Shown here: piece after piece, positions 9,190-12,834 of the stretch | Numbering within the stretch: position 1 is the stretch's first letter | Layout of the letters: every line of letters starts with the position of its first letter | Notes under the pieces: generated by a model | Database searches by the model: none | The model's input: the letters and a program-made list of their open reading frames with translations, nothing else | Told to the model about the DNA's origin: nothing | Position numbers and translations under genes: made by a program | DNA from: Escherichia coli | GTDB lineage: Bacteria; Pseudomonadota; Gammaproteobacteria; Enterobacterales; Enterobacteriaceae | Assembly (NCBI RefSeq): GCF_045037415.1 | Contig: NZ_CP173438.1 | Strand: one strand, 5' to 3' | DNA length: 64,000 bases

Positions 9190-10820
9190 AACTGGAATTT
9201 AGAGACAAAACCAAAGCCCTGATCGACAGCCTGAAAAGCATCTGTGCGAACTACGGCCTGGGCAACGACGGTAACGAATTCAAAATTATCACTCAGGCAT
9301 TCCTGTACAAATTCCTGAACGACAAATTCGCTTTTGAGGCCAAACAGAAAGATAAAAGTATCGCCAGCGCCGAAAGCTGGGAAGATGCGCTCAGCGCAAT
9401 GAGCGAAGATCAACTGAAAAAGCTGCAACAGCGGATGGCCCCGGATACCGCCCGCCTGAAGCCGCACCATTTTATTCGTTACTTGTATAACCGACAAAAC
9501 GCAGCGGACTTTGCCAGAACTTTTGACGACACCCTGATGGACATCGCCGCCACCAACAACGACGTCTTCGCGGTCAAAACCGACGGCGGCGCGAAAGTGG
9601 TGCTGTTTGAGCGCCTCAGCCAGTACATCGCCGACGAATCAAAGCGCGATGATTTCTGCCGCGCCATCATCAACAAGCTGGCCGATTTCAGCTTCGAACG
9701 CATCTTCACGCAGAAATTCGACTTCTACGCCACCATCTTTGAATACCTGATCAAAGACTACAACAGCAACTCCGGCGGCAAATACGCGGAATACTACACG
9801 CCCCACGCCGTGGCGCGCATCATGGCGGAAATCCTGGTGCCGAAAGCGCAGCAGGGCGTGGTGCGCAACGTAAGCTGTTACGACCCGTCCGCCGGTTCCG
9901 GCACGCTGCTGATGAACGTGGCGCACGCCATTGGGGAAGATCGTTGCAGCATCTTTGCCCAGGATATCTCGCAGAAATCCTCCAGCCTGCTGCGTCTGAA
10001 CCTGATCCTCAACAACCTGGTGCATTCGATCCCTAACGTTATCCAGGGCAACACTATTCTGCATCCGTTCCACAAGGACGGCGGCGCGCTGAAACGCTTT
10101 GACTACATCGTCTCCAACCCGCCGTTTAAGATGGATTTCAGCGACTTTCGTGACGCGCTGGACAGCAAGGAAAACCAGCAACGTTTCTTTGCCGGGATAC
10201 CGAAAATCAAAGCCAAAGCCAGGGACAAAATGGAGATTTACCAGTTGTTCCTGCAACACATCATTTTCTCGCTGAAACCGGGTGGCAAGGCGGCGGTCGT
10301 CGTGCCGACCGGGTTTATCACCGCGCAATCGGGCATTGATAAAGGCATTCGCGAACATCTGGTGCAAAACAAGATGCTGGCGGGCGTGGTTTCCATGCCG
10401 TCGAATATCTTCGCCACCACCGGTACCAACGTGTCGATCCTGTTTATTGACGCCAGCAACAAAGAGAAAGTGGTGCTGATCGACGCCTCGAATTTAGGTG
10501 AAAAGGTCAAAGACGGCAAAAACCAGAAAACGGTGCTGACGGAGTGCGAAGAAAAACGGATCTGCGAAGCGTTTAACAACAAGTGGAGCGAAGAGGATTT
10601 CTCGGTGGTGGTCAGCTATGACGACATCGCCGCGAAAAATTACTCGTTCAGCGCCGGACAGTATTTTGATGTGAAAATCGAATACACCGACATGACGCCG
10701 GAACAGTTTGCCGCGAAGATGAAAGGATTTACGGAGAATCTGAATAATCTCTTTGAACAGTCGCGCGAGTTAGAAGTGCAAATAAAAATGCAGATGGCAG
10801 ATATCAAATATGAAATTTAA
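9183..10820 (+). CDS. hsdM: Type I restriction-modification N6-adenine DNA methyltransferase M subunit
   Basis: 545 aa; motifs DPSAGSGTLL (AdoMet binding) and VSNPPFKM (catalytic NPPF). Confidence 0.9.
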   Translation: MVELEFRDKTKALIDSLKSICANYGLGNDGNEFKIITQAFLYKFLNDKFAFEAKQKDKSIASAESWEDALSAMSEDQLKKLQQRMAPDTARLKPHHFIRYLYNRQNAADFARTFDDTLMDIAATNNDVFAVKTDGGAKVVLFERLSQYIADESKRDDFCRAIINKLADFSFERIFTQKFDFYATIFEYLIKDYNSNSGGKYAEYYTPHAVARIMAEILVPKAQQGVVRNVSCYDPSAGSGTLLMNVAHAIGEDRCSIFAQDISQKSSSLLRLNLILNNLVHSIPNVIQGNTILHPFHKDGGALKRFDYIVSNPPFKMDFSDFRDALDSKENQQRFFAGIPKIKAKARDKMEIYQLFLQHIIFSLKPGGKAAVVVPTGFITAQSGIDKGIREHLVQNKMLAGVVSMPSNIFATTGTNVSILFIDASNKEKVVLIDASNLGEKVKDGKNQKTVLTECEEKRICEAFNNKWSEEDFSVVVSYDDIAAKNYSFSAGQYFDVKIEYTDMTPEQFAAKMKGFTENLNNLFEQSRELEVQIKMQMADIKYEI

Positions 10821-12834
10821 TTATCTGAAAATTAAAGATGTATGTGATTTTGTCGGAGGAAGTCAACCTCCAAAATCTCAATTTATTTATGTATCTAAAC
10901 CTGGATATGTCAGGTTGATCCAGACGCGTGATTACAAAACGGATGCATTTCCCACGTATATACCAATATCGTCGACGAAGAAATTTTGTGATGAATTCGA
11001 TATTATGATTGGTAGGTATGGTCCCCCAATTTTTCAAATATGTCGCGGATTGAAAGGAGCATATAACGTTGCCTTGCTGAAGGTTAGGTAATGACTCCAA
11101 CTTATTGATAGTGTTTTATGTTCAGATAATGCCCGATGACTTTGTCATGCAGCTCCACCGATTTTGAGAACGACAGCGACTTCCGTCCCAGCCGTGCCAG
11201 GTGCTGCCTCAGATTCAGGTTATGCCGCTCAATTCGCTGCGTATATCGCTTGCTGATTACGTGCAGCTTTCCCTTCAGGCGGGATTCATACAGCGGCCAG
11301 CCATCCGTCATCCATATCACCACGTCAAAGGGTGACAGCAGGCTCATAAGACGCCCCAGCGTCGCCATCGTGCGTTCACCGAATACGTGCGCAACAACCG
11401 TCTTCCGGAGCCTGTCATACGCGTAAAACAGCCAGCGCTGGCGCGATTTAGCCCCGACATAGCCCCACTGTTCGTCCATTTCCGCGCAGACGATGACGTC
11501 ACTGCCCGGCTGTATGCGCGAGGTTACCGACTGCGGCCTGAGTTTTTTAAGTGACGTAAAATCGTGTTGAGGCCAACGCCCATAATGCGGGCTGTTGCCC
11601 GGCATCCAACGCCATTCATGGCCATATCAATGATTTTCTGGTGCGTACCGGGTTGAGAAGCGGTGTAAGTGAACTGCAGTTGCCATGTTTTACGGCAGTG
11701 AGAGCAGAGATAGCGCTGATGTCCGGCGGTGCTTTTGCCGTTACGCACCACCCCGTCAGTAGCTGAACAGGAGGGACAGCTGATAGAAACAGAAGCCACT
11801 GGAGCACCTCAAAAACACCATCATACACTAAATCAGTAAGTTGGCAGCATCACCGAAGGTTATACCTAAAGAAGGTGTAAGTCGTGATTTTTTATACTAT
11901 TTTTTGAAGCAAGACTCTGTTTTCCAATATGTTGATAAATTATCTGCCAGAACCGGAGGACAAACTGGAGTTGATCTAGTTTCTTTAAAAGAATATCCAG
12001 TCAGGATACCTGAAGAAATTGAATGTCAAGAAAAATTGGTGACTATTCTTAGTGTTATTGATAAAAAAATCGCCCTCAACAACCGCATCAACACGGAACT
12101 GGAAGCGATGGCGAAAACACTGTATGACTACTGGTTTGTACAGTTTGATTTCCCTGATGCCAACGGAAAACCGTATAAAACCTCCGGCGGGAAGATGGAG
12201 TATAACGCCACGCTGAAACGGGAAATTCCGGCAGGTTGGAATGACTCCATTCTTGGTAAGTTTATTGAGTTAGATCGTGGCGTTACTTATAGCAAAGAGG
12301 ATGTTCGAACTCAGGATGATAAAGATACGATAGGCATTCTTCGCGCTACAAATGTGACGGGAAATAATGTTGATATTGATGATTTAGTCTTCATTCCTTC
12401 TAGTAGAGTAAACGTTAATCAAATGCTAAATAAATTTGACATATTGATCGTGATGTCAAGTGGTAGTAAGGAGCATGTAGGGAAGAATGGCGTGTATTAT
12501 TTCGAAAAAAAAACATGCATTTGGCGCATTTTGTTCAAAAATTACACCCGTCAGAAAATACAGATATTTTATAAATACATTCCTGCAATCGAAATGGTTT
12601 AAGTCTTATATAAACAATCAGTGCTTGGGAACTAATATTAATAACCTGACCAATACGCATATCACTAATTGTGAAATCATATGCCCCACTCCTGATGTTG
12701 TGGCGTTATTCGAGAATAAAATGATGCCAATTTATAATAAACTGGCATCAAACACTCAAGAGAATAGTCATTTAATCCAACTCCGCGACTGGCTCCTCCC
12801 TCTACTTATGAACGGACAGGTCACGGTCAAATAA
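10810..12834 (+). pseudogene. hsdS: Type I R-M specificity subunit, interrupted by IS1 and by a frame break
   Basis: N-terminal segment 10810-11086, IS1, then 11854-12602 in frame 0 and 12487-12834 in frame 1; conserved C-terminal ..LRDWLLPLLMNGQVTV present. Confidence 0.8.
11087..11853 (-). mobile_element. insAB: IS1 insertion sequence (insA 11524-11799, insB 11102-11605)
   Basis: Terminal repeats ggtaatgactccaac... and ...ggcagcatcacc; InsA and InsB ORFs; flanked by direct repeat GAAGGTTA. Confidence 0.9.

Follow-up and report, generated by a model that had tools for sequence, protein, structure and literature searches.

A type I restriction-modification (R-M) operon in a 64-kb stretch of Escherichia coli DNA (contig NZ_CP173438.1; the window hereafter, meaning all 64,000 nucleotides (nt) analysed) raises the question of why intact genes for restriction (hsdR) and modification (hsdM) should stand next to a specificity gene, hsdS, that is broken in two places, and of what this means for the cell. 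The answer that we consider very probable is that the hsdS gene of the EcoMIII system has been destroyed privately in this genome, by an insertion of the insertion sequence (IS) IS1 and by a slip in a tract of adenines, as a case of neutral decay at mutational hot spots, and that the strain is predicted to be deficient in both restriction and modification (r-m-).

The first lesion is a complete IS1 located after codon 92 of hsdS (nt 277), within the first Methylase_S domain of the protein. A preliminary description of this DNA had hsdS split by IS1 at 11087-11853; the gene is indeed split there, and the element, at 768 bp, ends one base further on, at 11854. Both IS1 genes, insA (11524-11799) and insB (11102-11605), are intact, lie on the minus strand and match the NCBIfam model NF033558 (transpos_IS1). 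Together with terminal repeats that agree at most of their first 23 positions and a flanking direct repeat of 8 bp, GAAGGTTA, these are the features that define an IS1. As it stands, the 5' open reading frame (ORF) of hsdS ends at a TAA inside the element (11089-11091). Excising IS1 and one copy of GAAGGTTA rejoins the 5' and middle fragments in frame, which bears out, at this junction, the continuous frame proposed in the preliminary description. The insertion is absent from strains 4/1-1 and EC958 and from NZ_OZ040716.1, all of which serve as references below, and it destroys hsdS by itself.

The second lesion became apparent when hsdS was read without IS1 and without one of the repeats. The resulting gene has 1249 nt. 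Globally aligned with the intact 1248-nt allele of 4/1-1 and EC958, it differs only by one extra A, which turns a run of eight adenines (A8) into one of nine (A9). The frame upstream of A9 terminates at 12602, and the final 321 nt of the gene are out of frame. This is the second break that had been placed near 12500 on account of two downstream segments in different frames. Comparison with intact hsdS alleles, which had been suggested as a check, yields exactly two lesions relative to the allele that encodes WP_000671528.1. The features of the locus are collected in Table 1.

Table 1. Coordinates of the EcoMIII operon, the two lesions in hsdS and the island attachment site within the window.
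Feature	Position	Strand	Remarks
hsdR (R.EcoMIII), intact, 1032 amino acids (aa)	6091-9189	plus	100% identical to WP_000673070.1 of 4/1-1; PADLOC REase_I
hsdM (M.EcoMIII), intact, 545 aa	9183-10820	plus	100% identical to WP_000229741.1; PADLOC MTase_I full-length, 1009 bits
hsdS 5' fragment, codons 1-92 and first base of codon 93, in recognition domain 1	10810-11086	plus	Alignment to intact allele
Target-site duplication, left copy GAAGGTTA	11079-11086		Intact allele holds a single copy
IS1, complete, 768 bp, imperfect terminal inverted repeats	11087-11854	minus	
Target-site duplication, right copy GAAGGTTA	11855-11862		
hsdS middle fragment: remainder of domain 1, central conserved region, start of domain 2	11863-12504	plus	
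A9 tract, +1 frameshift at codons 304-307, recognition domain 2	12505-12513	plus	Reference A8
hsdS 3' fragment: end of domain 2 and C-terminal conserved helix, out of frame	12514-12834	plus	
tRNA-Thr (thrW, anticodon CGT), island attachment site	14011-14086	minus	ARAGORN; annotations of 4/1-1 and EC958

In the intact HsdS, Pfam Methylase_S covers residues 4-174 (recognition domain 1) and residues 215-367 (recognition domain 2), and the central conserved region, nt 471-654 of the gene, is common to other hsdS alleles. The window hsdS no longer encodes two recognition domains, since IS1 splits domain 1 and the extra A shifts the frame within domain 2. By descent the system belongs to type I R-M, but it is not functional.

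Two further observations concern the recognition domains of this allele. Residues 213-366 of HsdS (domain 2; about 12223-12682 in the window) match recognition domain 1 of the EcoKI HsdS (2y7c_A residues 5-159, E=1e-24), which we take to read AAC; the match hints at which of the two half-sites, RTAC or CAC (the complement of GTG), is recognised by domain 2. In two porcine enterotoxigenic E. coli genomes (NZ_CP122685.1 and NZ_CP122938.1), hsdS has nt 471-1248 in common with this allele at 98.3% and a different 5' part, so that recognition domain 1 has been exchanged naturally while the conserved framework is shared.

To identify the system, window positions 6000-13000 were compared by megablast with the RefSeq complete E. 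coli genomes, and genomes with a query cover of at least 80% were counted as carriers. The 538 carriers are mostly O25b:H4 strains of sequence type 131 (ST131), and they match at 100% identity apart from a block of ~0.78 kb that they lack. Judging by these matches, the source chromosome is that of an E. coli ST131, and the locus lies within the thrW genomic island (GI-thrW). The gene order annotated in strain 4/1-1 (NZ_CP023844.1) is AbiEii, AbiEi, hsdR, hsdM, hsdS, two small genes, a decayed integrase, tRNA-Thr, proA and proB, with accessions WP_000673070.1 for HsdR, WP_000229741.1 for HsdM and WP_000671528.1 for HsdS (1248 nt, 415 aa), and EC958 has the identical three protein accessions at the equivalent position. 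The type I system in GI-thrW of EC958 is EcoMIII (R/M/S.EcoMIII, EC958_0426/0425/0424; gene order hsdR-hsdM-hsdS; Forde et al. 2015, PMC4659465), for which knockout and sequencing of single molecules in real time (SMRT) in EC958 revealed N6-methyladenine (m6A) at RTACN4GTG, with >99% of the sites methylated (PMC4659465). On sequence identity, the operon in the window is this EcoMIII of ST131, an already characterised system that the preliminary description had not named. In agreement with this, PADLOC called the subunits as REase_I, MTase_I and Specificity_I (the last on the intact allele, 1001 bits), and the RefSeq annotation concurs. The window contains only five RTACN4GTG sites (10423, 28730, 30466, 44489 and 50966), all on the plus strand and one of them inside hsdM.

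As for the surroundings of the operon, an AbiEii toxin/AbiEi antitoxin pair (4118-5807, minus strand) lies directly upstream of hsdR, and decayed integrase genes border the island on either side, making GI-thrW a small defence island.

The other two subunits are not affected. Positions 1-11086 of the window are 100% identical to strain 4/1-1, and therefore hsdR, hsdM and the region upstream are unaltered and the products of both genes are the EC958 proteins; the two genes, also taken as intact in the preliminary description, are annotated as intact in 4/1-1. HsdM has the catalytic NPPF motif at residue 312, and a PF02384 (N6_Mtase) match is recorded for the identical protein, as befits an N6-adenine methyltransferase. 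HsdR, whose mechanically called ORF begins upstream of the gene start with a GTG at 6070, carries a PD...EVK motif in its nuclease region (residues 119-136), and its precomputed Pfam matches, HSDR_N (PF04313), ResIII (PF04851) and SWI2_SNF2 (PF18766), account for a nuclease and a superfamily 2 motor. A simple regular expression for the DEAD/DEAH helicase motif found none in HsdR, and the motor assignment therefore comes from the profile matches.

We then asked how widespread the two lesions are. The hsdS/IS1 junction was not found in 5,426 RefSeq complete E. coli genomes, a set that lies apart from the window's own genome. The only full-length match to the junction, in strain 18044, consists of two joined pieces at 97.6% identity, with IS1 elsewhere in hsdS. 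For the A tract, a 261-nt query with A9 reached a best identity of 99.6% (one gap) in all 538 carriers, none of which has A9, and the A7 version of the same 261-nt stretch also reached 99.6% at best, with A7 in 0/538 carriers. The failed match to the IS1 junction and the 99.6% ceilings for both A9 and A7 indicate A8 in the carriers among the complete genomes. With the intact 1248-nt allele as the query, 519 RefSeq complete genomes match over at least 80% of its length, almost all at 100% identity. At the protein level, neither the 93-aa junction-specific fragment nor the 115-aa 3' fragment had an exact product in an index of 153 billion genes, and the protein collection does not contain the 253-aa middle ORF of the window hsdS. 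Against 4/1-1, the 64 kb of the window shows no single-nucleotide polymorphism (SNP), one indel, which is the extra A, and three IS insertions; the remaining ~61 kb has 0 SNPs and no other indel. Both hsdS lesions are private to this genome in the available data, and they are recent.

Other insertion sequences in the window helped to date the lesions. A second IS1 copy (27281-28037, 757 bp), in the orientation opposite to the hsdS copy and with an 11-bp internal deletion and 2 SNPs relative to it, interrupts the lateral-flagellar (Flag-2) motA at codons 2-4, flanked by the 9-bp duplication TATTTTTTG. Its junction is common to 57 RefSeq complete genomes and marks an ST131 sublineage. In p11A, the one of these 57 genomes that was checked, hsdS is intact, which places the hsdS lesions later than the motA::IS1 sublineage. 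An IS3-family element, IS1397 (32560-33991, 1432 bp), has inserted into a repetitive extragenic palindromic (REP) sequence between fliD and lafA and duplicated 3 bp, TTT; its junction is common to one genome only, NZ_OZ040716.1, in which both hsdS and motA are intact. We also sought the order of the lesions through relatives sharing motA::IS1 or IS1397, and obtained none because the two markers conflict, a conflict that is likely to have arisen because IS1397 inserted site-specifically into this REP more than once. An inversion or a composite transposon formed by the inverted IS1 copies at 11087 and 27281 was considered and rejected, as the segment between them is collinear with the reference, and a separate target duplication accompanies each copy.

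Why these two sites? IS1 favours AT-rich targets, and the guanine-plus-cytosine content of the hsdS recognition domains is 35-41%, as against 50-57% for hsdR and hsdM. We attribute the position of IS1 to this AT-richness, and the extra A to the proneness of an A8 homopolymer to slippage. In the sequence of events that we propose, a complete IS1 would have transposed into the AT-rich DNA of recognition domain 1, duplicating 8 bp and cutting the protein after residue 92, and the A8 tract in domain 2 would separately have gained one A by replication slippage. Each lesion by itself would preclude a two-domain HsdS, so that whichever came first would have left the second selectively neutral and able to persist.

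The same gene has been disrupted elsewhere. Strain 18044 (NZ_AP022326.1) carries an independent IS1 in hsdS (locus coordinates 8520-9287), inserted after nt 709 of the gene and flanked by a 9-bp duplication; the element is a different isoform, 93% identical. In this strain AbiEii is also split, by ISEc52. The 90% protein cluster of this HsdS contains many products that are truncated or partial, and one has a foreign C-terminal tail (P0007; WP_250205408.1, 385 aa, C-terminally truncated, 6 contigs). In the dog isolate H173 (NZ_CP098203.1), hsdS is 1252 nt long rather than 1248, and the difference is probably due to an insertion of 4 nt.

As for the consequences, HsdS is the sole source of sequence recognition and the scaffold of both the M2S1 methylase and the R2M2S1 nuclease, and classical r-m- mutants of E. 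coli map to hsdS. This established biology, in which methylase and nuclease both need HsdS, supports the earlier claim that a dead S subunit leaves no target recognition. Without HsdS, neither M2S1 nor R2M2S1 would form, and HsdR and HsdM would be made but inert. On this analysis the strain is predicted to be r-m- for RTACN4GTG, with methylation and the restriction barrier both lost; methylation at GATC and at AACN4CTTT, the EcoMII motif, is predicted to continue as before. The other type I system of ST131, EcoMII, has an R subunit that is 92% identical to that of StySBLI (Forde et al., PMC4659465). Rescue by the EcoMII S subunit seems unlikely, because the EcoMII R is close to StySBLI and the EcoMIII HsdR is close to no classical family.

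Some observations weigh against an explanation by IS1, slippage and drift. Tract-length variants occur in 0/538 RefSeq complete genomes and many A7 records come from contigs >1 Mb, and the extra A may not be biological. In addition, two private events fall in one 1.25-kb gene while the rest of the window is without private change, which could be a sign of selection and not of drift. The co-location of both private changes is suggestive, yet it is adequately explained by two hot spots and by relaxed selection after the first lesion.

The alternative that survives best is that only IS1 is real, the extra A at 12505-12513 having arisen in sequencing or assembly as a homopolymer error, which we regard as possible but rather unlikely. 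Besides the invariance of the tract in a set of complete genomes to which the window's own genome does not belong, it is favoured by the nature of the tract, one of only two homopolymers of at least 8 bases in the 64 kb, and by the records of its variants in public assemblies. There, the A7 frameshift product (328 aa) is found on 83 contigs and the A9 product without IS1 (338 aa) on 4-8; 40 of the 132 collection blocks with the A7 product are on contigs >1 Mb, and both of the >1-Mb A7 loci that were read (L016 and L017) have further indels relative to the window, as noisy long-read assemblies do. Part of the tract-length variation in public assemblies is thus likely to be sequencing error. Against an error in the window itself, the ~61 kb comparable with 4/1-1 is otherwise free of indels, also at 78 runs of 6-7 bases and at the second A8 tract, which lies at 54225-54232. 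Moreover, the exact A9 allele recurs in other data sets: several A9 contigs are small ones assembled from sequencing runs in Logan or ENA, and four match the window minus IS1 at 100% identity. GCA_901485185.1, ERR13868054 and ERR13868076 are assemblies that have A9 only. On balance, the window's extra A is probably real rather than a sequencing error. The functional conclusion does not depend on it, because IS1 alone kills hsdS.

Adaptive loss appears improbable. It holds that inactivation of hsdS was selected, either for the relief from self-restriction raised in the preliminary description or because an immune-deficient cell acts as a gateway for plasmids and phages. The only two private mutations in 64 kb are both in hsdS, and the independent IS1 of strain 18044 and the further truncated products recorded could be taken as signs of repeated loss. 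There are also precedents, as naturally hsd-deficient Staphylococcus aureus strains are gateways of gene transfer (PMC13216270) and plasmid benefit can select for IS disruption of defence genes (PMC10359306). However, selection cannot act on a second lesion in a gene that is already dead, whereas drift accounts for it, and the hot-spot character of both sites accounts for the coincidence. Disruption is seen in about 1-2 of ~520 complete genomes, which is no recurrent sweep, and the S. aureus precedent favours loss of hsdR, giving r-m+ cells, rather than of hsdS (PMC13216270). Self-restriction in particular is no evident problem here: hsdM is intact, the S allele is the same as in ~520 complete genomes, and loss of S takes away restriction and modification together. 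The A9-only assemblies, moreover, retain an intact, full-length hsdR. Neutral decay therefore remains our explanation for the loss of hsdS, and the proposal of relief from self-restriction finds no support here.

A last alternative treats the A tract as a contingency locus. Its slippage would turn EcoMIII off and on or, in the manner of NgoAV and of truncated EcoDXXI and EcoR124I, produce a truncated HsdS that dimerises and has a changed specificity; a later IS1 would then have locked the off state or removed a harmful new specificity. Variants of -1 and +1 are both on record, repeat-driven switching of hsdS is established (PMC7383803), and NgoAV-type phase-variable genes resemble this one in having a homopolymer whose changes in length shift the frame. 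We nevertheless consider this reading highly improbable, as the tracts of phase-variable hsdS genes have at least 9 bases and are sited between the two recognition domains (Atack et al., PMC7383803), whereas here the ON allele is A8, the tract (codons 304-307) lies inside domain 2 (215-367), where a frameshift gives a broken domain and no C-terminal helix, and its length is invariant in the 538 RefSeq complete genomes. A related reading, in which A8 is a low-rate reversible off switch, or a source of truncated HsdS of altered specificity, that IS1 then made permanently off in this genome, is still very unlikely; if true, it would mean transient restriction-deficient ST131 subpopulations taking up foreign DNA.

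Altogether, the locus is an ordinary strain-specific pseudogenisation of a characterised specificity gene by known mutational mechanisms, and involves no new system or mechanism. For this ST131 isolate, the predicted loss of methylation and restriction bears on the efficiency of transformation and conjugation and on the reading of its methylome, although the practical value is small. More generally, the locus adds one more natural case of defence-gene knockout by IS1, and it calls for caution, as homopolymer frameshifts of hsdS in public assemblies may be artefact as often as biology.

Compared with known systems, EcoMIII shares its subunit architecture with the type IC enzyme EcoR124I, which provides the best PDB sequence matches to HsdR and HsdM. 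The similarity is distant (E ~1e-26 for HsdR and ~1e-33 for HsdM), and the gene order is M-S-R in EcoR124I versus R-M-S in the window; by these comparisons, EcoMIII stands outside the classical type IC family. Assignment to one of the classical families IA-IE was also tried, and the system was not assignable, with NCBIfam matches under the curated cut-offs and distant PDB matches. Among disrupted genes, the closest counterpart is the hsdS of strain 18044, in which the gene, the IS family, the orientation and the simple mode of insertion are the same, whereas the position (nt 709 versus 277), the isoform (93% identity), the length of the duplication (9 versus 8 bp) and the tract, A8 in that strain, differ. 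Disruption of defence genes by IS1 and IS10 has been documented (Sheng et al. 2023, PMC10359306). Those cases share with the window a chromosomal IS1, a simple insertion with target duplication and the abolition of a defence gene; they differ in that cas genes were hit under plasmid selection, whereas the hsdS of the window has no identifiable selective agent and bears an independent frameshift besides (PMC10359306). Finally, the system most similar is EcoMIII of EC958 itself, which has the same island by thrW and proBA, the same R-M-S order, identical HsdR and HsdM and an hsdS that is identical save for the two lesions. The difference lies in those lesions: the hsdS of the window is IS1-interrupted and frameshifted, and the methylation and restriction at RTACN4GTG that EcoMIII would otherwise provide are predicted to be absent.

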